DNA from: Escherichia coli
GTDB taxonomy: Bacteria > Pseudomonadota > Gammaproteobacteria > Enterobacterales > Enterobacteriaceae
Assembly: GCF_044324785.1 (NCBI RefSeq)
Contig: NZ_CP172127.1
Length of the DNA stretch: 64,000 nt
Strand: one strand, 5' to 3'
Shown: positions 1 to 60,695 of the stretch, one piece after another
Position numbering within the stretch: position 1 is the stretch's first letter
Layout of the letters: each line of letters starts with the position of its first letter
Position numbers and translations under genes: made by a program
Notes under the pieces: model-generated
Told to the model about the DNA's origin: nothing
The model's input: only the letters and a program-made list of their open reading frames with translations
Databases searched by the model: none

Positions 1-300
1 GGGATTTTGATAACTCACGAATGCCGTACCTGTTACGGCATTGTTCATAACGTGGATCCCATCGGTAATGACACCTTCATGACGGAGGCGCTCTATAATG
101 AGTCGGCCAAAATCATCATTACCAACACATCCGAAGAAGATGGCCCGATGGGACAGTTTTGCCACCTGAGCAGCAAAAATTGCTGGCGCACCGCTGGGAA
201 ATGGCCCGATAAACTCCCCAGGCTGAGTGAATTTTTGATGCGGGTTGCGGGACAAAAACTCGGCCAGCAATTCGCCCATAGCGCAGATAGTTATTGTCAC
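1..300 (-). CDS. PfkB-family carbohydrate kinase, N-terminal part only (gene runs off the left edge)
   Basis: Minus-strand frame open from GTG ~300 or ATG 279 down to position 1; translation MGELLAEFL...GPFPSGAPAIF...GCVGNDDFG...AVTGTAFVSY follows the same pattern as the N-terminus of the PfkB kinase at 5835-6797. Absent from the ORF track because no stop lies in the window. Confidence 0.55.
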   Translation of the reverse strand, partial: MTITICAMGELLAEFLSRNPHQKFTQPGEFIGPFPSGAPAIFAAQVAKLSHRAIFFGCVGNDDFGRLIIERLRHEGVITDGIHVMNNAVTGTAFVSYQNP

Positions 301-310
301 AAAACCCCTC

Positions 311-1141
311 TCATTCCTGAAGCCTTTCGCGATTGGACCAGGTAAAGCACTCATTACTGGTATAAAGGATAACGAAATCAGCCGACTGCAATTGTTGCTG
401 ATATTGTTCGTTAATGCTGCGGCTGACGATCACATTTTCTGCTTGATGCAAATGCCCGATAGCAGCCGTTGATGGCGCAGGATCGGCGGCAACGATAACC
501 GTCTTATTCTGGGCATTATCGAAACAGAGCTGCCAGGCAGCGGCAAGTCTGGGAACGTTGATATTTAAAGTACCATCAGCATCCAGATGGCTGATTTCCA
601 GAATGCTATGTGTAATGGTGAAATGCTGAAGTGCCTGTTCGAGAGGTTTTCCGGCCAGTGCGGTGTCGGGGCGCAGCATTTCACTGCCAGCCAGTATTAT
701 TTCGCCATCAATAAACTGATTTGCCAGCAGCGCATGTTCGGGATCGTTGGTGATCAGACGCAGTTTTTTCACTTCGCTGAGCAAAGGAATGATCTTACGG
801 CAGATTGTCCCATGTCCAAGAAATAGCGTGTCACGATCGCGAATTAATCGTGCGCAATGTCGTGCTATTTCCATTTGTTGTGCCAGAGACAACGGCGCGA
901 TCGGTTGTATCGCTTCTGGTTCAGAGGAGAGTGGTGTCGCAATAGCACCGCCAAATGATCGCTTTAAATATCCCTGTTGCTCCAGATAACTGAGATCGCC
1001 GCGGATCGTCACGCCAGAGACACCAAGTTGCGCAGATAAGTCATCAACTTTGATTTCACCCTGGGCGGCAACAATTTCTGCAATTTTTAATCTGCGTTTC
1101 AGTAAGTTAGACGATTTTCTCGGCACGTTAACACTCTTCAT
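311..1141 (-). CDS. DeoR-family transcriptional regulator (sugar operon repressor type)
   Basis: 276-aa ORF with N-terminal helix-turn-helix (LKIAEIVAAQGEIKVDDLSAQLGVSGVTIRGDLSYLEQQG) and a DeoR-like C-terminal domain; divergent from the aldolase/ABC operon; AAAGG 5 nt upstream of the ATG. Confidence 0.7.
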   Translation of the reverse strand: MKSVNVPRKSSNLLKRRLKIAEIVAAQGEIKVDDLSAQLGVSGVTIRGDLSYLEQQGYLKRSFGGAIATPLSSEPEAIQPIAPLSLAQQMEIARHCARLIRDRDTLFLGHGTICRKIIPLLSEVKKLRLITNDPEHALLANQFIDGEIILAGSEMLRPDTALAGKPLEQALQHFTITHSILEISHLDADGTLNINVPRLAAAWQLCFDNAQNKTVIVAADPAPSTAAIGHLHQAENVIVSRSINEQYQQQLQSADFVILYTSNECFTWSNRERLQE

Positions 1142-1310
1142 TGGCCTTTAATGCGTAACACTATAGCCCCTTGTATTTTTCTTTGAAAGTTATCCTTCAA
1201 TAATATCGACAATTCGAAAAGAAAAGCATGGGCTAAAAATCGCAACGAAAATATCTTAATACATTGAAAAATAAATGAATAACTTAATATTTATGCAGAT
1301 GTACTATTGG

Positions 1311-1329
1311 TTTCACTTGCAAAGTGAAA
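1311..1329. promoter_or_regulatory. Candidate operator: palindrome TTTCACTT-gca-AAGTGAAA in the divergent promoter region
   Basis: Perfect 8-bp inverted repeat with 3-bp spacer read directly in the AT-rich regulator/aldolase intergenic region; function inferred. Confidence 0.3.
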
Positions 1330-1413
1330 AACAAATTAAGTTATTTTTTGTAAGTTATTTTGATGATATTCGACATGCATCACGCTTTTTGCCGCTTTTG
1401 CTGTGTTAGTTTG

Positions 1414-1428
1414 CTTTCAAAATGAAAG
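1414..1428. promoter_or_regulatory. Candidate operator: palindrome CTTTCA-aaa-TGAAAG sharing the TTTCA/TGAAA half-sites
   Basis: Second inverted repeat with the same half-site, ~55 bp upstream of the aldolase start; function inferred. Confidence 0.3.
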
Positions 1429-1455
1429 TGAAGATTCTGTTTCTTCATTTTGTAA

Positions 1456-2337
<882 letters not shown>

Positions 2338-2372
2338 TACGTTGTACCCTACAAAAACAATGAGGATTGTTT

Positions 2373-3263
2373 ATGAAAAATATTAAATTACTTGGTTCAG
2401 CTATGTTGGTGAGCCTGGCATTATTCTCGCAAAGTTCATTGGCAAAAGAGTATAAAATCGGTGCGTCATTATTAACACAGCAACATCCTTTCTATATTGA
2501 TCTTGCGAATGCCATGAAAGAAGAGGCAAAAAAAGACAATGTCAATTTAAGTGTCTCTATTGCCAATCAGGATTTAAACAAACAACTTTCTGATGTTGAG
2601 GATTTTATTACTAAAAAAGTGGATGCCATTATTATCTCTCCGGTTGATTCGAAAGGCGTCCAGGCGGCGATAATTAAAGCCGATAAGGCCGGTATTCCCG
2701 TTATCACCGTCGACGTCGCTGCGGAAGGCGTTCCGGTCGTATCGCATGTTGCGACCGATAACTACGCGGGAGGCGTTGAAGCAGGCAAGTTAATGGGCAA
2801 ACTTTTGAATGGCAAAGGTACTGTAGCCATTATTTCTTATCCGGCACTACAATCGGTGGTTGCGCGCGTTGATGGTTTTAAGAAAGGGTTAAGCGAGACA
2901 CCGGATATTAAAATTGTTGCTGAACAACCAGGTATAACGCGGGCTGAAGCGTTAACGACTGCGCAAAACATTATGCAGGCCAACGCCAACCTGAATGGTC
3001 TGTTTGGCTTTGGTGATGATGCGGCGTTGGCAGCGGTTATCGCAGCGAAATCTGCGCATAACGACAACATCAAAATCATTGGTTTTGACGGCATGAAAGA
3101 AGCGCGTGATGCCGTTGACAGTGAAAAAACGTTTGCGGCCGTGATTCGGCAATATCCCGATCAAATGGGGGCTAAAGCCATTGATGCTGCTGTTGATCAC
3201 CTCAATGGTAAACCGGTAGAAAAAATGATCCCGGTACAACCCGGCGTTTATACAGGTAAATAA
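2373..3263 (+). CDS. Periplasmic sugar-binding protein of an ABC transporter (RbsB-like)
   Basis: ORF track starts at TTG 2367; ATG at 2373 with GAGGA 7 nt upstream is the likelier start. Signal peptide MKNIKLLGSAMLVSLALFSQSSLA; type I periplasmic binding protein pattern; visibly AT-rich. Confidence 0.8.
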   Translation: MKNIKLLGSAMLVSLALFSQSSLAKEYKIGASLLTQQHPFYIDLANAMKEEAKKDNVNLSVSIANQDLNKQLSDVEDFITKKVDAIIISPVDSKGVQAAIIKADKAGIPVITVDVAAEGVPVVSHVATDNYAGGVEAGKLMGKLLNGKGTVAIISYPALQSVVARVDGFKKGLSETPDIKIVAEQPGITRAEALTTAQNIMQANANLNGLFGFGDDAALAAVIAAKSAHNDNIKIIGFDGMKEARDAVDSEKTFAAVIRQYPDQMGAKAIDAAVDHLNGKPVEKMIPVQPGVYTGK

Positions 3264-3280
3264 TAAACATCTTCATTTCA

Positions 3281-3307
3281 CAACAAAACGTTATCGACGT
3301 TTTGTTG
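3281..3307 (+). other. Intercistronic stem-loop between the binding-protein and ATPase genes
   Basis: Perfect 10-bp inverted repeat CAACAAAACG-ttatcga-CGTTTTGTTG, 17 bp upstream of the ATPase start. Confidence 0.45.
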
Positions 3308-3323
3308 TGACACCGAGGTCATT

Positions 3324-4823
3324 ATGACGGATGTTATTCTTGATGTTTCGCATATTGCGAAGACATTTGGTCATGTTCAGGCATTAAAAAATATTACACT
3401 CTCTTTACGTAAAGGGCGGGTGCATACTTTATTAGGCGAGAATGGTGCCGGTAAATCGACATTAATGAAAATACTCGCCGGTGTTTATCCGCCAACCCAG
3501 GGAACGATAACACTACGTGGTGAAACCATCACCATTAATAATCCGCAGCATTCTCGCCAGTTAGGGATTGCGATTATTTTTCAGGAACTGAGCCTGAGTA
3601 ATAATATGACCGTGGCGGAAAATATCTATGCCAATAATGAACCGCGACGTTTTGGCATTATTAATGATAAAAAAATGCTCGCAGATTGCCAGAATCTCCT
3701 CGCGGAACTGGGCATCCCTCTGGATCCGCTGGAAATGGTCGGCAATATGTCGATGGCACATAGGCAACTGGTAGAAATTGCCAAAGCCTTAAGCTATGCA
3801 GCGGATGTCGTGATTATGGATGAACCGACATCTTCGCTAAGTGATAATGAAGCAGAGATTCTGTTTAACATTATTGAGAAATTAAAGCAGCGAGGTTGTG
3901 CGGTTATTTATATCTCTCATCGCATGGATGAAATTATGCGGATTTCAGATGATATTTCGGTGATCCGCGACGGTGAGTATATCGCTACGCATGAAAAGAA
4001 AAACAGTGATATCCAGCATTTGATTGCCCAAATGGTTGGTCGGGAAATGAAAAATATTTGGCCAGCACGTCTTGGGGAAAAGCCGGATGAAAATGTTCCT
4101 GCAAAACTGGAAGTAAAAAACCTTTCCCATCCCTCGCTTTTTAAAGAGGTCAGTTTCGCTGTGCGTCCGGGGGAAGTCCTTGGATTTTTTGGCCTGGTGG
4201 GAGCCGGGCGTTCCGATGTGATGAAGGCGCTATTTGGCCTCGTTTCGTATCACGGAACTGTGTTGATTGATGGTAAGGAAGTCAGGATCGCTAATCCCAA
4301 ACAGGCTATTGATCATGGCATTGCTTTTGTGACCGAAAACCGCAAGGAAGAAGGGTTAGTGCTGATGCACGACGTCAATATGAACACGCACCATGTGGCG
4401 TTTCAATATAACGCTTCGCGGATGGGACTCATCAATCACCGACAAGAAGAGGCGAAGACGCTGCAATCTATTGCCAGAATGAACACTAAAGTGAGTTCTG
4501 TACATCAGGCAGTGGGAGCGCTGAGCGGCGGTAATCAACAGAAAATCGTGTTATCGAAGTGGCTGGAGAAAACTCCGCGTATTTTATTGCTCGATGAGCC
4601 AACGCGCGGAGTGGATGTCGGCGCAAAATTTGAAATCTATAACGTGATACGTCAACTGGCTGCGGCAGGGACAGCAATTATTCTGGTGTCCTCTGAACTG
4701 CCAGAAGTCATGGCACTTAGCGATCGTCTGGTGGTAATGCGTAATAAAACGATTGCCGATATTTATTCATGTGAAAATTTAACGCAGACACAGGTAATGA
4801 CCGCTGCAACAGGAGTACGTTAA
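3324..4823 (+). CDS. Sugar ABC transporter ATP-binding protein with two nucleotide-binding domains (RbsA/MglA-like)
   Basis: 499-aa ORF with two Walker A motifs (GENGAGKST and GLVGAGRS) and two LSGGxQQ-type signatures; AT-rich. Confidence 0.85.
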   Translation: MTDVILDVSHIAKTFGHVQALKNITLSLRKGRVHTLLGENGAGKSTLMKILAGVYPPTQGTITLRGETITINNPQHSRQLGIAIIFQELSLSNNMTVAENIYANNEPRRFGIINDKKMLADCQNLLAELGIPLDPLEMVGNMSMAHRQLVEIAKALSYAADVVIMDEPTSSLSDNEAEILFNIIEKLKQRGCAVIYISHRMDEIMRISDDISVIRDGEYIATHEKKNSDIQHLIAQMVGREMKNIWPARLGEKPDENVPAKLEVKNLSHPSLFKEVSFAVRPGEVLGFFGLVGAGRSDVMKALFGLVSYHGTVLIDGKEVRIANPKQAIDHGIAFVTENRKEEGLVLMHDVNMNTHHVAFQYNASRMGLINHRQEEAKTLQSIARMNTKVSSVHQAVGALSGGNQQKIVLSKWLEKTPRILLLDEPTRGVDVGAKFEIYNVIRQLAAAGTAIILVSSELPEVMALSDRLVVMRNKTIADIYSCENLTQTQVMTAATGVR

Positions 4824-5813
4824 ATGACAGAGAAAACTCTTGCCAGTCCGAAACCTTCGGAAATACCCATTGCAAATAATTTTAAAAAAGTCTTCAGGCA
4901 ATATGGCGGTATCCTCAGTGGAATGGTGGTGTTAATCATTCTGTTCAGTTTTATTAATGACAGTTTTTTTACTGCCAATAACATTACTAATATTATTCTT
5001 CAGGTTTCGATAATTGCAATTACCGCCTATGGAATGACTTATGTACTTTTGCTTGGCGATATTGATTTATCGGTCGGTTCAACCATTGCATTGATTGGCA
5101 CATTTGCTGCGCTTGGGGCTTCATGGGGAATTCCATTTATTTTATTGGTCCCATTATCCATTATTGCAGCCCTGGCTCTGGGGATGATAAATGGTGGCTT
5201 GACGGCTATAGCGGGTATCCCTTCGTTTATTGTCACCGTTGCTACTATGGGGATCTTCCGTGGTATCGCTTATATAGTGACCGATGGTATGCCCATCATG
5301 ATTAAAGATGATGCCTTTCTGGCGCTGGGGAATGGAGAATTTCTCTATATACCTATTCCAATCTGGATATTAATTATCTTATTGCTGATTAACCATTTCA
5401 TTCTTACTAAAACAACCTTTGGACGAAAAATTTATATCACTGGTGGTAATAAAGAAGCGGCAGTTTATTCAGGGATAAATGTCACCCGCTTGAAAATAAA
5501 AGTCTTTATGATTACAGCTGTGCTGGCAGGTATCAGCGGGATGATCCTCGCGTCACGCCTTTATTCCGGGCAACCGAATTCCGCGTTGAGCTACGAACTG
5601 GATGCTATTGCCGCGGCTGTACTGGGAGGCACCAGCCTGAACGGCGGCTATGGAACCGTGGTGGGGACGGTGATCGGCGCATTAACCATCGGCGTTATTA
5701 ATAATGGCATGAACTTAATGAATGTTCCCTATTTTTACCAGATGGTGGTTAAAGGATTAGTCATTCTTGTAGCCGTTTATTTTGACGTAAGAAATAAAAG
5801 AAAACGCAGCTAA
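4824..5813 (+). CDS. Sugar ABC transporter permease (RbsC/AraH-like)
   Basis: 329-aa hydrophobic ORF; ATG directly follows the ATPase TAA, implying translational coupling. Confidence 0.85.
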   Translation: MTEKTLASPKPSEIPIANNFKKVFRQYGGILSGMVVLIILFSFINDSFFTANNITNIILQVSIIAITAYGMTYVLLLGDIDLSVGSTIALIGTFAALGASWGIPFILLVPLSIIAALALGMINGGLTAIAGIPSFIVTVATMGIFRGIAYIVTDGMPIMIKDDAFLALGNGEFLYIPIPIWILIILLLINHFILTKTTFGRKIYITGGNKEAAVYSGINVTRLKIKVFMITAVLAGISGMILASRLYSGQPNSALSYELDAIAAAVLGGTSLNGGYGTVVGTVIGALTIGVINNGMNLMNVPYFYQMVVKGLVILVAVYFDVRNKRKRS

Positions 5814-5834
5814 TCATTTCAAGGAATTAATCAT

Positions 5835-6797
5835 ATGAGTAAGGTCTTCACAATTGGAGAAATTCTGGTTGAAATTATGGCGAGTAAAATCGGCCAGCCA
5901 TTTGATCAACCAGGTATCTGGAACGGCCCTTATCCCAGTGGTGCGCCCGCTATTTTTATCGACCAGGTGACACGTCTTGGCGTTCCGTGCGGCATCATTA
6001 GTTGTGTGGGGAATGATGGCTTTGGTGATATTAATATACATCGTCTGGCTGCTGACGGTGTGGATATCAGGGGGATTTCAGTCTTACCTCTGGAAGCTAC
6101 CGGGAGTGCCTTTGTTACTTATCATAACTCTGGCGATCGCGATTTTATTTTTAATATCAAGAATGCCGCTTGCGGTAAATTATCGGCGCAGCATGTTGAT
6201 GAAAATATTCTGAAGGACTGTACCCATTTTCATATTATGGGTTCATCCCTGTTTTCATTCCATATGGTAGACGCAGTAAAGAAAGCGGTAACCATTGTAA
6301 AGGAGAATGGTGGCGTTATTTCTTTCGACCCTAATATTCGGAAAGAGATGCTCGATATTCCAGAAATGCGTGACGCCCTCCACTTTGTTCTTGAGTTAAC
6401 AGATATCTATATGCCCAGCGAGGGAGAAGTGTTGCTCTTGTCGCCACACTCGACACCGGAGCGTGCAATCGCTGGTTTTCTTGAAGAAGGTGTTAAAGAG
6501 GTGATTGTGAAGCGCGGCAATCAAGGTGCCAGTTACTACTCCGCGAATGAGCAGTTTCATGTTGAGAGCTATCCGGTGGAAGAAGTTGACCCGACCGGTG
6601 CGGGAGACTGCTTTGGTGGCGCGTGGATTGCCTGCCGCCAGCTAGGGTTTGACGCCCATCGGGCATTACAATATGCCAACGCCTGCGGTGCACTGGCGGT
6701 AACCCGACGTGGTCCAATGGAGGGAACGTCTCGCCTTGCGGAAATCGAAGCGTTCATCCAGCGCCATGACATGTCCATTCGGGAAGCAGCACAATGA
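5835..6797 (+). CDS. PfkB-family sugar kinase (ribokinase/fructokinase-like)
   Basis: 320-aa ORF; AAGGA upstream; N-terminal glycine-rich motif and C-terminal DPTGAGDCFGGAW anion-hole/catalytic motif typical of the PfkB family. Confidence 0.8.
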   Translation: MSKVFTIGEILVEIMASKIGQPFDQPGIWNGPYPSGAPAIFIDQVTRLGVPCGIISCVGNDGFGDINIHRLAADGVDIRGISVLPLEATGSAFVTYHNSGDRDFIFNIKNAACGKLSAQHVDENILKDCTHFHIMGSSLFSFHMVDAVKKAVTIVKENGGVISFDPNIRKEMLDIPEMRDALHFVLELTDIYMPSEGEVLLLSPHSTPERAIAGFLEEGVKEVIVKRGNQGASYYSANEQFHVESYPVEEVDPTGAGDCFGGAWIACRQLGFDAHRALQYANACGALAVTRRGPMEGTSRLAEIEAFIQRHDMSIREAAQ

Positions 6798-7840
6798 AAA
6801 ACGAAATTTGGTCGTGGATTGGCGATCTCTCGCAGGTTGCCGGAATTAAACACTATGAGTTACGTAGTGGCAGAGCAAAGGGGACAGAAGCGTTTGATGT
6901 CCGTACCGGTGCGGGACTGGCATTTACGGTGGTAAAAGATCGCGCGCTGGATATTGCATGGGCCAGCTACAAGGACACTGCGCTCTCTTTTATCACCCCC
7001 AACGGCATTGTCGCCCCCGCTTTTTTTGAGTCTCAGGGCAACGGGTTTTTACGTAGCTTCTACGCGGGGTTACTGACTACCTGCGGACTTAGCTACATTG
7101 GCACGCCCTGTGAGGATGACGGAGAAACGCTGGGGTTACACGGGCGTTTGGCTGCGACTCCAGCAGAAGAGGTGGGGTATCGCACAGAACGGACCGACGA
7201 CGGCATTGAATTTGTCATCAATGGCAAAGTACGGGAAACACGATTGTTCGGTGAAAATCTGACGCTGGAAAGGACCATTCGCTGCCGCTATGGCGAAAAT
7301 GTGCTGCGCATTGAAGACAAGGTGACTAATCATGGTTTCACCCGCCAGCCGCTGCAAATTCTTTATCACTTTAATTACGGCTGGCCTTTATTATCGCCAC
7401 AGGCAGAAATTTTGCTGTCGGCTAAAAGCGTAACGCCACGAACTCCGCATGCGGCGGAAGGGATAGCCAGTCATCTGGAGATTTGTACCCCACAGCCCGG
7501 TTTTGACGAGCAGGTTTACTATCTCACGTTGAATAGTGACAGTCAGGGGATGAGTAAAGTTGCGCTGGTGAACGCTGAACTGGGGTGGGGAATTTACGAG
7601 AAATTCGACACCATGCAGCTACCCAACTTTATCCAGTGGAAAAATTTAGGCGCGGGTGAATATGTTATGGGGCTGGAGGTCAGCAATAGTTTTCCTGACG
7701 GTCGTGATAAAGAACGAGCGCAGGGGCGTCTGCCCTTTATAGAGCCAGGGGAAACAAAGACATACTGCTTTGAGCTGGGAATTGTTGATGGCGATGCTGA
7801 AATTAGCGCGTTGAAAGCGGAAATTGCAAGCTACCGTTAG
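6794..7840 (+). CDS. Aldose 1-epimerase (mutarotase)-like protein, uncharacterised
   Basis: 348-aa ORF overlapping the kinase stop by ATGA; contains LYHFNYGWP and GLEVSNSFPD...PGE motifs reminiscent of galactose mutarotase-fold proteins; assignment from motif recall only. Confidence 0.5.
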   Translation: MKNEIWSWIGDLSQVAGIKHYELRSGRAKGTEAFDVRTGAGLAFTVVKDRALDIAWASYKDTALSFITPNGIVAPAFFESQGNGFLRSFYAGLLTTCGLSYIGTPCEDDGETLGLHGRLAATPAEEVGYRTERTDDGIEFVINGKVRETRLFGENLTLERTIRCRYGENVLRIEDKVTNHGFTRQPLQILYHFNYGWPLLSPQAEILLSAKSVTPRTPHAAEGIASHLEICTPQPGFDEQVYYLTLNSDSQGMSKVALVNAELGWGIYEKFDTMQLPNFIQWKNLGAGEYVMGLEVSNSFPDGRDKERAQGRLPFIEPGETKTYCFELGIVDGDAEISALKAEIASYR

Positions 7841-7850
7841 CTAACGGCAA

Positions 7851-7886
7851 TAAAAACGCCGGGCAGCGTTAACAGGCCCGGCGTTG
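7851..7886 (-). terminator. Rho-independent terminator downstream of accC, shared with the convergent sugar operon
   Basis: 10-bp stem AACGCCGGGC/GCCCGGCGTT with 11-nt loop, followed on the minus strand by TTTTTATT. Confidence 0.5.
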
Positions 7887-7931
7887 ATTACGTTCTTTGC
7901 TAAGCGCGATGAAAACACCGCGCGTCACAAA

Positions 7932-9281
7932 TTATTTTTCCTGAAGACCGAGTTTTTTCTCCAGATAGTGGATGTTAGTGCCACCATGCTGGAAGTTCTC
8001 GTCATTCATGATGCGGATCTGCAGATCAACGTTGGTTTTGATACCGTCGATGATCAGCTCCTGCAGCGCATTCTTCATGCGGGCAATCGCCACGTCACGG
8101 TTTTCACCGTAGCAAATCAGCTTACCGATCATTGAGTCATAGTACGGCGGTACGGTGTAGCCCGCGTAGATATGAGACTCCCAACGCACGCCAAAACCGC
8201 CTGGTGCGTGGAAACGGGTGATTTTGCCCGGGCTTGGCAGGAAGGTGTTCGGATCTTCGGCGTTGATACGGCATTCCACCGCATGGCCGCGAACGTGAAC
8301 TTCTTCTTGCTTGATCGACAGCGGTTGACCGGCAGCGATACGCAGCTGTTCTTTGATCAGGTCAACGCCGGTGATCATTTCGGTAACCGGATGTTCTACC
8401 TGAATACGGGTGTTCATTTCGATGAAATAGAACTCGCCGTTTTCGAACAGGAACTCGAAAGTACCTGCGCCGCGATAGCCGATATCAACACACGCTTTAG
8501 CACAACGTTCGCCGATGTAGCGACGCAGTTCCGGAGTAATGCCCGGTGCTGGTGCTTCTTCGACCACTTTCTGGTGGCGGCGCTGCATGGAGCAGTCACG
8601 TTCCGCCAGATAGATAGCGTTGCCCTGACCGTCAGCCAGTACCTGAATCTCGACGTGGCGAGGATTTTCCAGGTATTTCTCCATGTAAACCATATCGTTG
8701 CTGAAAGCAGCTTTCGCTTCCGCACGGGTCATGGAGATGGATTGTGCCAGTTCAGCGTCGCCGCGCACTACGCGCATACCGCGACCGCCGCCGCCGCCGG
8801 AGGCTTTGATAATTACCGGATAACCAATGCGTTTAGCAATGGCGCGGTTTTTATCCATATCGTCGCCCAGCGGGCCGTCAGAACCCGGTACGCAAGGAAC
8901 GCCAGCTTTTTTCATCGCCGCGATTGCGGATACTTTGTCGCCCATCAGGCGAATGGTTTCTGCTTTCGGGCCAATGAAGATAAAGCCGGAGCGTTCAACC
9001 TGTTCAGCAAAGTTGGCGTTCTCGGAGAGGAAGCCGTAGCCCGGATGGATTGCTACTGCGCCGGTGATTTCAGCGGCGCTGATGATTGCCGGGATGTTCA
9101 GATAACTTTTTACTGACGGAGCAGGGCCGATACAGACCGTTTCATCTGCCAGTAATACGTGTTTTAAATCGCGATCCGCGCTGGAGTGCACAGCGACAGT
9201 CTTGATGCCCAATTCTTTACAGGCACGAAGAATACGCAATGCAATCTCGCCGCGGTTGGCAATAACAATTTTATCCAGCAT
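7932..9281 (-). CDS. accC: Biotin carboxylase subunit of acetyl-CoA carboxylase
   Basis: 449-aa protein from [16 protein letters not shown] (ORF track has a 13-codon N-terminal extension); GAGG RBS; sequence recognised as E. coli AccC. Confidence 0.95.
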
Positions 9282-9291
9282 GTTCGCCTCG

Positions 9292-9762
9292 TTACTCGAT
9301 GACGACCAGCGGCTCGTCAAATTCTACCGGTTGTCCACTTTCGACCAGAATTGCTTTCACGGTACCGGATTTGTCCGCTTCGATCTGGTTCATCATTTTC
9401 ATGGCTTCAACGATGCACAGGGTATCGCCCACGTTGACTTTCTGACCCACTTCGATGAACGCTTTTGCGTCCGGGCTTGGGGTGCGGTAGAAAGTACCAA
9501 CCATCGGGGAACGTACGATGTGACCACTGATTTCCGCTGCTGCTGGCGCTTCCATGGAAGGAACGGTCGCCGGAGCGGCTGCGTTAGATTGAGCTGGCTG
9601 CTGCATCATTGGTGCAGCGTAAGCTTGTTGCATCACAGGGAAACTTGCGGCAGGAGCTGCACGGCTAATGCGTACTGACTCTTCGCCTTCAGAAATTTCC
9701 AGTTCGGAGATGCCTGATTCTTCAACCAGCTCGATCAGTTTTTTAATCTTACGAATATCCAT
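9292..9762 (-). CDS. accB: Biotin carboxyl carrier protein
   Basis: 156-aa ORF with Ala/Pro-rich linker and biotinylation motif [10 protein letters not shown]; immediately upstream of accC. Confidence 0.95.
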
Positions 9763-10525
9763 GAGTGGGTTCCGTACTCTTTGTTTAGTGTGATTGTGAC
9801 AGGCGTTTCACCGCCGTCTGTAAAGCGTATGCCCCGACAGCTGTATGCATAGCGATAAATTCCAGCAGGCCGGGACGCCGGTCTATTTTGCCCCAGAGTG
9901 TCAATGTTAGACTTGACGGACATTGTGCAGCGATCTGCTGCTATCCTCCGGCAAAAAACAAAATATACCTTCGTTGCGCCAATGTCACCTTTTCCGCAGC
10001 GCAAAAACTGCGTCAGGGAGGACGAGGTCGCACATTATAACGATTTCGTAGCAATTGGCAGCTAAATACTGGTCTTATCAGGGAAGATAATCAACAGCTA
10101 ACATGTAAATAACCTTCAACACCGTGTAATTTGCAACAAGCCGCACAATTCACGAAATTAGCGCCATCATCGACGGAACTTCTTATAACGTAAGGCTAAA
10201 AGCTGTAAAGCCAGCCCTGCGAAGATGAGGGGCTGCAATGAGATAATCTTCACAGACCACAAATAATGTAGGGATGCCAGGATCGCGACAAGATCGACGA
10301 CATTACGCAGCGGTTGCTGGGGATTGCCCAATTTTCACTGCATCGTCTGGATAAATGTGAATGCTAAAGCACGCAAAATCAACCGCCTGACAATGCTCAG
10401 CATGAAATAGGTTTAACTGGTTAATTTGTAATCAAACAAAATCAGATTATTCCCCCCATTTTGCAGAAGGTAAACTGTTTTGTCAGGCGGCAGTACGGCT
10501 ATGTGATGCACTGCCGCGTGACAAT

Positions 10526-27476: not shown

Positions 27477-29444
27477 ATGGGTATTTTCTCCATTGCTAAT
27501 CAACATATTCGCTTTGCGGTAAAACTGGCGACTGCCATTGTACTGGCGCTGTTTGTTGGCTTTCACTTCCAGCTGGAAACACCACGCTGGGCGGTACTGA
27601 CAGCGGCGATTGTTGCCGCCGGTCCGGCCTTTGCTGCGGGAGGTGAACCGTATTCTGGCGCTATTCGCTATCGTGGCTTTTTGCGCATCATCGGCACATT
27701 TATTGGCTGTATTGCCGGACTGGTGATCATCATTGCGATGATCCGCGCACCACTATTGATGATTCTGGTGTGCTGTATCTGGGCCGGTTTTTGTACCTGG
27801 ATATCCTCGCTGGTACGAATAGAAAACTCGTATGCGTGGGGGCTGGCCGGTTATACCGCGCTGATCATTGTGATCACTATTCAGCCGGAACCATTGCTTA
27901 CGCCGCAGTTTGCCGTCGAACGTTGTAGCGAGATCGTTATCGGTATTGTGTGTGCGATTATGGCGGATTTGCTCTTTTCTCCGCGATCGATCAAACAAGA
28001 AGTGGATCGAGAGCTGGAAAGTTTGCTCGTCGCGCAATATCAATTAATGCAACTCTGTATCAAGCATGGCGATGGTGAAGTTGTCGATAAAGCCTGGGGC
28101 GACCTGGTGCGGCGCACCACGGCGCTACAAGGCATGCGCAGCAACCTGAATATGGAATCTTCCCGCTGGGCGCGGGCCAATCGACGTTTAAAAGCGATCA
28201 ATACGCTATCGCTGACGCTGATTACCCAATCCTGCGAAACTTATCTTATTCAGAATACGCGCCCGGAATTGATCACTGATACTTTCCGCGAATTTTTTGA
28301 CACGCCGGTAGAAACCGCGCAGGACGTCCACAAGCAGCTCAAACGCCTGCGGAGAGTTATCGCCTGGACCGGGGAACGGGAAACGCCTGTCACCATTTAT
28401 AGCTGGGTCGCGGCGGCAACGCGTTATCAGCTTCTCAAGCGCGGCGTTATCAGTAACACAAAAATCAACGCCACCGAAGAAGAGATCCTGCAAGGCGAAC
28501 CGGAAGTAAAAGTAGAGTCAGCCGAACGTCATCATGCGATGGTTAACTTCTGGCGAACCACACTTTCCTGCATTCTGGGGACGCTTTTCTGGCTGTGGAC
28601 GGGCTGGACTTCCGGCAGTGGTGCAATGGTGATGATTGCGGTAGTGACGTCACTGGCAATGCGTTTGCCGAATCCACGCATGGTGGCGATCGACTTTATC
28701 TATGGGACGCTGGCGGCGCTGCCGTTAGGGCTGCTCTACTTTTTGGTGATTATCCCTAATACTCAACAGAGCATGTTGCTGTTGTGTATTAGCCTGGCAG
28801 TGCTGGGATTCTTCCTCGGTATAGAAGTACAGAAACGGCGACTGGGCTCGATGGGGGCGCTGGCCAGCACCATAAATATTATCGTGCTGGATAATCCGAT
28901 GACTTTCCATTTCAGTCAGTTTCTCGACAGCGCATTAGGGCAAATCGTCGGCTGTGTGCTCGCGTTCACCGTTATTTTGCTGGTGCGGGATAAATCGCGC
29001 GACAGGACCGGACGTGTACTGCTTAATCAGTTTGTTTCTGCCGCTGTTTCCGCGATGACTACCAATGTGGCACGTCGTAAAGAGAACCACCTCCCGGCAC
29101 TTTATCAGCAGCTGTTTTTGCTGATGAATAAGTTCCCAGGGGATTTGCCGAAATTTCGTCTGGCGCTGACGATGATTATTGCGCACCAGCGCCTGCGTGA
29201 TGCGCCGATCCCGGTTAACGAGGATTTATCGGCGTTTCACCGACAAATGCGCCGCACAGCAGATCATGTGATATCTGCCCGTAGCGATGATAAACGTCGT
29301 CGGTACTTTGGCCAGTTGCTGGAAGAACTTGAAATCTACCAGGAAAAGCTACGCATCTGGCAAGCGCCACCGCAGGTGACGGAACCGGTTCATCGGCTGG
29401 CGGGGATGCTCCATAAGTATCAACATGCGTTGACCGATAGTTAA
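27477..29444 (+). CDS. aaeB: Aromatic carboxylic acid efflux pump, inner membrane subunit
   Basis: 655-aa polytopic membrane ORF. Confidence 0.9.
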
Positions 29445-29446
29445 GT

Positions 29447-29477
29447 CAAAACCGACGCCAAAAGCGTCGGTTTTTTC
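29447..29477 (+). terminator. Rho-independent terminator of aaeXAB
   Basis: Stem CCGACGC/GCGTCGG with 5-nt loop followed by TTTTTT, 3 bp after the aaeB stop. Confidence 0.65.
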
Positions 29478-29535
29478 ATGGCTATACTTAGCGATGAACG
29501 GCAGAACTCGCCGCGAAACGTGACGGTGGCAACAG

Positions 29536-31321: not shown

Positions 31322-32335
<1,014 letters not shown>

Positions 32336-32351
32336 TTGATTAGCGGATAAT

Positions 32352-32386
32352 AAAAAACCGGAGCACAGACTCCGGTTTTTTGTTTT
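32352..32386. terminator. Bidirectional terminator between mdh and degS
   Basis: Stem CCGGAG/CTCCGG with A-run before and T-run after. Confidence 0.7.
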
Positions 32387-32397
32387 GAGCGCACGAC

Positions 32398-33465
32398 TTA
32401 ATTGGTTGCCGGATATTCCTGAATGGTGACCTGCAGCGTTAACTGCTTATCATCACGCATCACTACAACCGGGATCACCGAGCCAGGGCGAATTTCCGCC
32501 ACCTGATCCATCGTCTCCAGAGCAGAGATGGCCGGTTTGTTATCCACCGAAATAATCAAATCGTTGACCTGAATACCCGCATTCGCCGCCGGGCCGTCAG
32601 GTGACACTTCATTAACCACGATCCCTTGCAGTTGATCTATACCACCGCCCTGCGCGTGCAGTGGTGCGATCTCACGTCCGCCGATACCAATGTAGCCGCG
32701 GATCACGCGACCATCGCGGATCAGCTTATCCATAATTTTGGTTGCTAACTGGAAAGGAATCGCAAAGCCGATACCTTCCGGCGTTTCGCCATCGTTACTC
32801 TTATCAAACGACAGCGTGTTAATGCCCATCAGTTCGCCCAGCGAGTTCACCAGCGCGCCGCCAGAGTTACCGTGGTTAATGGAAGCATCGGTTTGCAGGA
32901 AATTTTGCCGCCCGGTCGGGTTCAGACCAATTCGACCCGTGGCACTAATAATCCCCTGGGTAATGGTCTGCCCGAGGTTGTACGGGTTACCGATCGCCAG
33001 TACCACGTCACCAATGTGCGGTACGCGACGTGCGTTGATTGGAATGGTAGGTAAACCGCCAGTGGCATTAATTTTAAGTACCGCCAGATCGGTTAGAGAG
33101 TCAGATCCCACCAGCAATGCTTCAAATACACGTCCATCTTGTAAGGCGACGATGATCTGATCGGCGTCGTTGATGACGTGTTTATTGGTGATGATATAAC
33201 CGCGTTGATCCATGATTACACCGGATCCCAGGGTGCGGATCTCAAGCTGGTTGTGAGAGTTTGTGTTCAAACCACGGTTGTAAACGTTAACCACCGCTGG
33301 CGCGGCGCGGCGAACCGCCAGATTATAGCTGGCAGGCGTCTCATCGGTACTGTCAAATTGCGGAGTGGAAAGCGGGTTAAGGCTGCGCAGCGAAGGCATG
33401 GCAACCAGCAGAATAGCGCCGACAATTAATCCAATCGCAACGGAACGTAAGAGCTTCACAAACAT
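32398..33465 (-). CDS. degS: Envelope-stress serine protease DegS
   Basis: 355-aa ORF with membrane anchor, trypsin-like domain and one PDZ domain. Confidence 0.95.
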   Translation of the reverse strand: MFVKLLRSVAIGLIVGAILLVAMPSLRSLNPLSTPQFDSTDETPASYNLAVRRAAPAVVNVYNRGLNTNSHNQLEIRTLGSGVIMDQRGYIITNKHVINDADQIIVALQDGRVFEALLVGSDSLTDLAVLKINATGGLPTIPINARRVPHIGDVVLAIGNPYNLGQTITQGIISATGRIGLNPTGRQNFLQTDASINHGNSGGALVNSLGELMGINTLSFDKSNDGETPEGIGFAIPFQLATKIMDKLIRDGRVIRGYIGIGGREIAPLHAQGGGIDQLQGIVVNEVSPDGPAANAGIQVNDLIISVDNKPAISALETMDQVAEIRPGSVIPVVVMRDDKQLTLQVTIQEYPATN

Positions 33466-51889: not shown

Positions 51890-52007
51890 AAATTATAAAC
51901 GCATAATATAAAAAGAACGATACGCCCACAGAATGTGTAGGCGTTGTTTTATTAAATTATTCATGTATGTTATTTTTCAGTTAAAACTAAAAAATAACAG
52001 CAATAAA

Positions 52008-52754
52008 TTATTTATATTCCAGGAAGACTTCAAAGCCACCTGTATACTCTTCACGCCCGGTCACATCAGCGAAAGAGGCTTTATCCAGCAGCGCGACCGT
52101 TGTTTGTAGCGGGAAAACAACTGTTTTAGCTGGCGTGATGGAAGTCTTTCCTGGTTCTGCAACAGAAATACGACGAGTATTGGTTAAAGATACTGCACCA
52201 GCTGAATCTTTAGGCACGATGGTCCATGGCTGGTCAAGGTCGGTGCTATAGCTATAGATCAGCACTTTTTCAACTGGGGTAGGGTTTGCAACAGTGGTGA
52301 TTGTCGGGGTTCTGAATACAGTCCAGAATGCTCCAGCACCTTTGCCGCCAGCACGCAGTAGTGGGTTGATCTGATTTTTTGAAGAGCCGAGAGTTAAATC
52401 AACTGTGCGACCATCTGCAGTGTTAATGATGGTAGGATTGCCGTTAGAAAGCGTTTTTACTTTGCTTTCATCAGCGGCATTGAGATGATTAGTTCTTAGT
52501 GCAACATACATATCGGTCGGACAATCAACTTTAAGCTGACTTTCTTTGATCATCGGTAGGTTATTCGATGCATCGGTAAGTTGATCAACAGCCTGAGTAC
52601 CAAAATCCAGAGTGTTACCCTCAATAATACCCAGTGAACATCCCGAAGGGACTAAAAGACCTTTCACGGTAATGGTTGCATCCGCAGCCAGAGCTGAACC
52701 GGTGGTAATAGCCAGAATCGCTACGCTGAGCGTAAGCTTTTTAACTAATGACAT
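52008..52754 (-). CDS. gltF: Periplasmic DUF1120 protein GltF
   Basis: ORF track 52008-52790; signal peptide MSLVKKLTLSVAILAITTGSALA favours the start at 52754; C-terminus GGFEVFLEYK resembles yhcF. Confidence 0.7.
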   Translation of the reverse strand: MSLVKKLTLSVAILAITTGSALAADATITVKGLLVPSGCSLGIIEGNTLDFGTQAVDQLTDASNNLPMIKESQLKVDCPTDMYVALRTNHLNAADESKVKTLSNGNPTIINTADGRTVDLTLGSSKNQINPLLRAGGKGAGAFWTVFRTPTITTVANPTPVEKVLIYSYSTDLDQPWTIVPKDSAGAVSLTNTRRISVAEPGKTSITPAKTVVFPLQTTVALLDKASFADVTGREEYTGGFEVFLEYK

Positions 52755-59765: not shown

Positions 59766-60695
59766 ATGCAGTTACAGAAATTAGTCAATATGTTTGGTGG
59801 TGATCTCACCCGTCGTTATGGGCAAAAGGTGCATAAGCTGACGCTGCACGGCGGTTTTAGCTGCCCTAACCGTGACGGTACCATCGGGCGTGGTGGCTGC
59901 ACATTCTGTAATGTTGCCTCGTTTGCCGATGAAGCGCAGCAGCATCGTTCCATTGCCGAACAACTGGCGCACCAGGCGAATTTAGTTAACCGCGCTAAAC
60001 GCTATCTGGCCTACTTTCAGGCGTATACCAGCACCTTTGCGGAAGTTCAGGTGTTGCGTTCTATGTATCAGCAGGCGGTGAGCCAGGCCAATATTGTCGG
60101 TTTGTGTGTTGGTACCCGCCCGGACTGCGTGCCGGATGCGGTGCTGGATCTGCTTTGTGAATATAAAGACCAGGGCTACGAAGTGTGGCTGGAGCTGGGG
60201 CTGCAAACCGCGCACGACAAAACGCTACATCGCATCAATCGCGGTCATGATTTCGCCTGTTATCAGCGCACGACGCAACTGGCACGCCAGCGCGGGCTGA
60301 AAGTGTGCTCGCATTTAATTGTTGGCCTGCCTGGCGAAGGGCAGACGGAATGTTTGCAAACGCTGGAGCGAGTGGTTGAAACCGGCGTGGACGGCATAAA
60401 GCTGCATCCGCTGCATATTGTGAAAGGCAGTATTATGGCGAAAGCCTGGGAAGCGGGGCGTTTCAACGGTATTGAACTGGAGGATTACACGTTCACTGCC
60501 GGAGAAATGATTCGCCATACGCCACCGGAAGTGATCTACCACCGCATTTCCGCCAGCGCCCGTCGCCCGACGTTGCTTGCTCCGCTGTGGTGCGAAAATC
60601 GATGGACGGGAATGGTCGAGCTGGATCGCTATCTGAATGAACATGGCGTACAGGGATCGGCGCTGGGACGCCCGTGGCTACCTCCAACGGAGTAG
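59766..60695 (+). CDS. yhcC: Radical SAM protein YhcC
   Basis: 309 aa from MQLQKLVNMFGGDL; Cys cluster CPNRDGTIGRGGCTFC; ORF track has an 11-codon extension. Confidence 0.9.
   Translation: MQLQKLVNMFGGDLTRRYGQKVHKLTLHGGFSCPNRDGTIGRGGCTFCNVASFADEAQQHRSIAEQLAHQANLVNRAKRYLAYFQAYTSTFAEVQVLRSMYQQAVSQANIVGLCVGTRPDCVPDAVLDLLCEYKDQGYEVWLELGLQTAHDKTLHRINRGHDFACYQRTTQLARQRGLKVCSHLIVGLPGEGQTECLQTLERVVETGVDGIKLHPLHIVKGSIMAKAWEAGRFNGIELEDYTFTAGEMIRHTPPEVIYHRISASARRPTLLAPLWCENRWTGMVELDRYLNEHGVQGSALGRPWLPPTE

Follow-up and report, generated by a model that had tools for sequence, protein, structure and literature searches.

A conserved hairpin in the tagA-tagB spacer of the Escherichia coli D-tagatose operon as a candidate stabilizer of the binding-protein message

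A perfect RNA stem of 13 bp lies between the gene for the periplasmic binding protein and the gene for the ABC ATPase in the D-tagatose operon of Escherichia coli strain N3, and comparison across four genera shows that its arms are under purifying selection to stay paired in the sense-strand RNA. Most likely, with a probability that we place at roughly 55%, the hairpin stabilizes the tagY-tagA part of the transcript, in a differential operon decay of the malE-malF type. The hairpin adds one conserved and previously unremarked cis-element to the D-tagatose operon that was recently described in the E. coli B2 group and Nissle 1917. The stretch analyzed here, called the window, comprises 64,000 nucleotides of contig NZ_CP172127.1, and all coordinates refer to it.

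The window is 100% identical to the chromosome of strain N3, and its tag genes lie in an accessory island flanked by yhdT and accC. The features that matter for the argument are given below; the gene-product assignments are from NCBIfam scans and the RefSeq annotation.

311-1141, minus strand: DeoR regulator
1414-1426, plus strand: tagO1, a predicted TagR operator (PMC12226905) matched exactly over its first 13 nt
1444-1456, minus strand: tagO2, the second predicted TagR operator (PMC12226905), likewise matched exactly over its first 13 nt
1483-2337: class II tagatose-bisphosphate aldolase
2373-3263, plus strand: tagA, periplasmic sugar-binding protein (SBP) of the D-tagatose ABC importer (PGAP annotation of strain N3; name from PMC12226905)
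3324-4823, plus strand: tagB, ABC ATPase with two nucleotide-binding domains (Shine-Dalgarno sequence GAGG at 3315-3318, ATG at 3324)
4824-5813: permease
5835-6797: tagatose kinase
6794-7840: aldose-1-epimerase-family protein

This gene set is the published D-tagatose cluster (tagK-tagR plus tagYABCDE) of E. coli Nissle 1917 and the B2 phylogroup (PMC9720028; PMC12226905), and the hairpin therefore sits in the 60-nt spacer between tagA and tagB. Neither of the two tag-operon papers mentions it (PMC9720028; PMC12226905). As dRNA-seq of the 8.5-kb tag locus gave only two transcription start sites (TSSs), both in the tagR-tagY region (PMC12226905), the hairpin is located inside a polycistronic mRNA. 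An internal promoter or operator for tagB, which was considered as a candidate, is ruled out by these published data together with a promoter scan of 3200-3330, which returned nothing.

Several observations concern the surroundings of this transcript. The sites tagO1 and tagO2 form an inverted repeat at Ptag, the promoter that drives the hairpin-containing transcript. A further sequence at 1311-1329 resembles the TagR motif with two to three mismatches on both strands without being either of the operators that PMC12226905 names; this sequence may represent a third TagR site, nearer the tagR promoter. At its 3' end, tagA closes with tandem in-frame TAA TAA codons (3261-3263 and 3264-3266), in place of which TAG TAA is found in the majority E. 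coli allele.

The hairpin itself is made up of the following parts in strain N3.

3278-3290, plus strand: 5' arm, TCACAACAAAACG, made of A and C only save for the last G
3291-3297, plus strand: loop, TTATCGA
3298-3310, plus strand: 3' arm, CGTTTTGTTGTGA, made of G and U only save for the first C and the last A

The first-pass annotation had described a perfect 10-bp inverted repeat at 3281-3307, placed between the stop codon of the binding-protein gene and the ribosome-binding site of the ATPase gene. The repeat is real, but 10 bp is too low a count, since the perfect Watson-Crick stem extends over 13 bp; the placement is correct, with the stop codon at 3261-3263 and the Shine-Dalgarno sequence at 3315-3318, such that the hairpin begins 14 nt 3' of the tagA stop and ends 4 nt 5' of the tagB Shine-Dalgarno sequence. 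Two extra pairs beyond the 13-bp stem are formed in RNAfold, U3291-A3297 as the 14th and U3292.G3296 above it, and the stem thus measures 13 to 15 bp. The RNA folding-energy calculation that had been proposed as a check agrees with a stable structure, giving -18.4 kcal/mol for the lone hairpin and -25.6 kcal/mol for its 81-nt context (z = -4.1), a value that none of 200 shuffles reached. No other perfect inverted repeat with a loop of 3 to 10 nt reaches 13 bp in the 64-kb window, and 30 dinucleotide shuffles of the window yielded no repeat of at least 13 bp and a mean of 0.13 at 11 bp or more. The hairpin is a real structure and not a product of chance.

Within E. coli, variation is confined to the sequence around the arms. 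A 38-nt query finds the hairpin, as a single copy, in 1,420 of 5,426 complete genomes, exclusively in those with the tag cluster. Five allele classes differ at five spacer positions, none of them in the arms: two are immediately 5' to the stem, two belong to the loop, and the fifth is farther upstream. The 5' arm is unchanged in all of the alleles compared. The identity classes of all 1,420 tag-positive genomes fit differences limited to two loop sites and the 5' flank, as in the sampled alleles. Strain N3 carries a minority spacer allele, with TT at 3276-3277 and the loop TTATCGA, which it shares with about 160 tag-positive genomes; about 1,259 of the 1,420 have the majority allele, with CC at 3276-3277 and the loop TTATTGG. 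Through A3297, the N3 allele converts the U.G loop-closing pair to U-A.

Superficieibacter electus, Enterobacter sp. ENT03, and Citrobacter farmeri share this stem, with both flanks and the loop (AGAAT, AGAGT, CCGT, and CTGC in these three relatives) replaced. All 14 pairs are formed in every one of eight distinct spacers from the four genera, with 100% of cells paired: 11 pairs are invariant, one changes from AU to GU in ENT03, and two are changed on both sides, from UA to AU at the base of the stem and among CG, UG, and UA at the loop-closing pair. The 5' arm shows two changes only across the four genera, both of which preserve pairing. Over these eight spacers, 5 of 28 columns are variable in the arms versus 22 of 32 in the other spacer positions (Fisher p = 9e-5), and the 12-bp core has a single variable column out of 24 (p = 1e-6). 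Both wobbles pair only in the sense RNA, their antisense equivalents being C.A mismatches, and the wobble alleles accordingly fold more stably as sense than as antisense RNA. The covariation rests on three events, as only about four genus-level lineages carry the stem, and in a modest shuffle control 41 of 500 shuffles attained the covariation score of the real alignment.

Conservation of this kind bears on whether the hairpin could be a functionless relic, be it a neutral palindrome or a decayed mobile repeat. Some lineages have no hairpin at all in the SBP-ATPase spacer, and a REP-like repeat fills the equivalent position in Serratia-like loci, so that these spacers do accumulate palindromes. 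The arms are, however, far more conserved than the remaining spacer, most strongly so in the core, every change keeps the pairing, and the tagA-tagB hairpin is single copy and belongs to no repeat family; we regard a relic as scarcely credible. Membership in a REP or MITE family was also considered and rejected, as the arm sequence recurs in the window solely as a chance-level match with one mismatch at 60213 and occupies one place per genome. The hairpin is like REP and BIME elements in being an intergenic palindrome able to act as an mRNA stabilizer, and unlike them in that E. coli has one copy per genome, in tag-positive genomes only, with no resemblance to the REP consensus. An Rfam search of positions 1-10000 at E <= 1 returned nothing but an unrelated chance match at 8276-8373.

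Over four genera, the 12-bp core (CACAACAAAACG/CGTTTTGTTGTG) is nearly invariant amid changed surroundings, which raises the question of whether the sequence itself could be read. One form of this idea is that the palindrome acts as duplex DNA, to which a dimeric protein would bind, and serves as a secondary operator or as a roadblock to transcription within the operon. The regulator of the operon offers no match: the TagR operator motif CTTWCAAAATGAA is exact only at 1414-1426 and 1444-1456, and the hairpin is unmatched even with three mismatches allowed. The motif is single copy in the genome, the half-site occurs elsewhere in the window as one chance-level match only, and no TSS is found nearby (PMC12226905). 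The core half-sites are spaced by 7 nt in three genera and by 6 nt in C. farmeri, a shift that is tolerated by a loop but usually not by the duplex-DNA operator of a dimer, and two asymmetric changes, G.U and U.G, retain RNA pairing yet break DNA symmetry. Together with the nonhomologous hairpins at the same site in other genera, which argue for a structural role, these observations make a DNA site very improbable.

A second form is that a trans-acting factor, which could be ProQ, Hfq, another RNA chaperone or RNase, or a DNA-binding protein, recognizes the near-invariant core. If true, the hairpin would serve the tagatose operon as a dedicated point of post-transcriptional control and not as a generic exonuclease barrier. 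We consider such a factor improbable, and the observations do not call for it. Only wobble-forming transitions in the 5' arm would be structure-neutral, and one of these in about four lineages is not clearly below expectation.

When the comparison is extended to more distant orthologous operons, the structure recurs without the sequence. The sample comprised 80 loci from species-representative genomes and further contigs, from each of which the sequence separating the SBP stop from the ATPase start was extracted. In most of the distant spacers, a hairpin lies just 3' of the SBP stop, with sequences that are unrelated between genera.

Trabulsiella: post-SBP hairpin TCAGGTTGCGAAG...CTTCGCAACCTGA
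Many Rhizobiales: post-SBP hairpin GCCGCCGCC...GGCGGCGGC
Klebsiella spallanzanii, Yersinia pseudotuberculosis, Sodalis, Gilliamella, and Budvicia: post-SBP hairpin
Burkholderiales, Halomonadaceae, and Brevibacillus: post-SBP hairpin
Serratia-like loci L012, L106, L109, and L110: REP-like CCCTCTCCC-NNN-GGGAGAGGG just after the SBP stop

The REP-like element of the Serratia-like loci is flanked by CCCTCAC.../...GTGAGGG and followed by a second hairpin, an order that parallels the REP arrangement of malE-malF.

These spacers are enriched for structure. Over the first 70 nt or less of 51 orthologous spacers, the mean folding z score was -2.41 and 57% of spacers fell below -2, versus means of -0.32 and -0.24 for SBP and ATPase coding windows of equal length from the same loci, with 2% below -2; the difference is significant in a paired Wilcoxon test (p about 2e-8), in which the loci are not phylogenetically independent, though many distinct hairpin sequences are represented. 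Among spacers of about 90 nt or longer, the most stable 44-nt fold was in the SBP-proximal half in 20 of 28 (binomial p = 0.036), and a T-rich tail (at least four T in the next 8 nt) followed in only 3 of these 28. A hairpin is not obligatory at this position: one Serratia-like contig (L088) has a spacer of 14 nt without a hairpin, and the spacers of Caballeronia and Cardiobacterium measure 13 to 20 nt. A metagenome scan with an anchor independent of the hairpin (the codons of PGVYTGK and the stop) recovered only five true orthologues, none of which brought a new variant of the E. coli-type stem.

The anatomy of the tagA-tagB element fits that of 3' protective structures, as it is stable, lacks a U-tract, follows the SBP gene, lies inside an operon, and is conserved as a structure in related species, and on this basis stabilization of tagY-tagA is judged the likeliest role. 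In such a mechanism, an endonuclease would cut the tagYABCDE message downstream of the hairpin, 3'-to-5' exonucleases (PNPase and RNase II) would stall at the stable stem without a U-tract, and the tagY-tagA segment would outlast the tagBCDE segment, with the outcome that the periplasmic binding protein exceeds the membrane transporter. Exonuclease blocking would then be the activity under selection, and excess SBP its result. An intercistronic protective structure of this type was reportedly described for malE-malF by Newbury et al. in 1987. Protective 3' hairpins in E. coli were characterized by Dar and Sorek in 2018 as stable structures without a U-tract that stop 3'-to-5' exonucleases after a downstream endonucleolytic cut, and the stabilized gene was the SBP gene in every ABC operon that they examined (PMC5927463).

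The tag hairpin shares with the malE-malF element and with the hairpins of Dar and Sorek its stability, its position directly after the SBP gene and within a polycistron, the lack of a U-tract, and conservation in related enterobacteria. There are also differences. The malE-malF element consists of multicopy REP sequences, whereas the tag hairpin is unique, single copy, and AT-rich, with G-C pairs at 5 of 13 positions, and its stem is for that reason less robust than those of classic REP stabilizers. Most of the structures of Dar and Sorek are inside the downstream open reading frame, whereas the tag hairpin is intergenic.

The first-pass annotation had proposed that such intercistronic hairpins either stabilize the upstream binding-protein transcript or terminate transcription in part. 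The former proposal is largely on target, in view of the selection on the arms in sense RNA, the recurrence of post-SBP hairpins, the position within the operon, and an anatomy of a published class. The latter fits poorly. A leaky factor-independent terminator would stop some of the RNA polymerases and so lower tagBCDE relative to tagYA, and there is precedent in Clostridia, where post-SBP stem-loops, some of them nearly or wholly lacking a U-tract, end transcription prematurely (PMC9045158). The 3' arm of the hairpin is, moreover, itself U-rich (CGUUUUGUUGUG). Yet the 8 nt that follow the stem (CACCGAGG) contain no T, and the stem is not G+C rich. Efficient intrinsic termination by E. coli RNA polymerase needs a U-tract, and a canonical intrinsic terminator is rejected here because no T-run follows the stem. 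The terminator scan, too, did not list the hairpin, and Dar and Sorek distinguish hairpins of this kind from terminators (PMC5927463).

Published expression data also fit poorly with termination at this point, as qRT-PCR shows both tagA and tagB to be induced more than 1000-fold, with the lower class (more than 40-fold) starting at tagC (PMC9720028). The visible step in induction falls after tagB and not after tagA (PMC9720028); these values are fold changes versus glucose and not relative abundances, and therefore constitute no direct test of the stabilizer model. Overall, we consider partial termination unlikely. In cellulolytic Clostridia, the internal terminators likewise are stem-loops in the spacer between SBP and translocator genes, are proposed to set SBP excess, and occur in 87% of the long spacers in clusters with a 5' SBP gene (PMC9045158), a figure that parallels the enrichment of structure in the spacers of tagA orthologues. 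In those elements, however, termination has been demonstrated, the stems are long and GC-rich, and the U-tracts are often reduced (PMC9045158), whereas the tag stem is rich in A-T pairs and lacks a U-tract, and tagB downstream of it is strongly induced.

Another conceivable role is in translation, in which the hairpin would mainly tune tagB by limiting 30S loading or by uncoupling tagB from tagA, thereby lowering ATPase and permease; such a role could coexist with that of a stabilizer. The end of the stem at 3310 is close to the Shine-Dalgarno sequence at 3315-3318, and one further element could be involved.

3269-3273, plus strand: AUCUU, able to pair with GAGGU (3315-3319, the tagB Shine-Dalgarno sequence) at the base of the hairpin, forming a weak and uncertain Shine-Dalgarno-sequestering helix

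This helix grows to 7 bp in Superficieibacter and ENT03, and the predicted unpaired probability of the Shine-Dalgarno sequence is about 0.1 or lower at three or all four of its positions in four of five orthologues. On the other hand, the pairing partner differs between species, and the AUCUU/GAGGU helix is broken in C. farmeri (90% of cells paired, with no covariation). For strain N3, folding predicts a half-open Shine-Dalgarno sequence whose accessibility hardly shifts when the stem is disrupted in silico, and in long orthologous spacers the hairpin is near the SBP stop and not near the ATPase start. We therefore view control of tagB translation as rather unlikely to be the main function. 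A long-range helix between 3266-3272 and 3329-3335 (AACAUCU/GGAUGUU) was examined as well and rejected, with 79% of cells paired, a break in C. farmeri, and no double changes.

More broadly, the hairpin is a further example, backed by comparison of many genera, of a familiar rule: in ABC importer operons, a stabilizing or attenuating stem-loop comes after the SBP gene. A protective hairpin after an SBP gene is a well-known and ordinary arrangement and opens no new question. In practical terms, deletion or relocation of the spacer might shift the TagA:TagBC ratio, and use of the tag locus as an inducible expression system or re-engineering of the transporter could be affected for this reason.

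The window holds other inverted repeats as well. A terminator-like hairpin with a T-run at 4165-4185 (plus strand) in tagB was considered as a candidate cause of the drop in expression after tagB and was rejected as a coding artifact: the second ATPase domain has its Walker-A region (GEVLGFFGLVGAG) at this place, the T-run corresponds to Phe-Phe codons, and neither E. coli E69 nor other genera preserve the fold. Positions 7855-7885, in the gap where tagE and accC converge, hold a perfect 10-bp inverted repeat, AACGCCGGGC...GCCCGGCGTT, which looks like the accC terminator because a T-run follows on the minus strand only; the tag operon transcript, too, may be capped at its 3' end by this repeat. 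Long imperfect inverted repeats are found elsewhere in the window at 29437-29485, 32330-32403, and 51953-52014. The repeats at 32330-32403 and 29437-29485 resemble ordinary terminators (AAAAACCGGAG/CTCCGGTTTTT and CCGACGC/GCGTCGGTTTTTT, respectively), and that at 51953-52014 is a 30-nt AT-rich palindrome.
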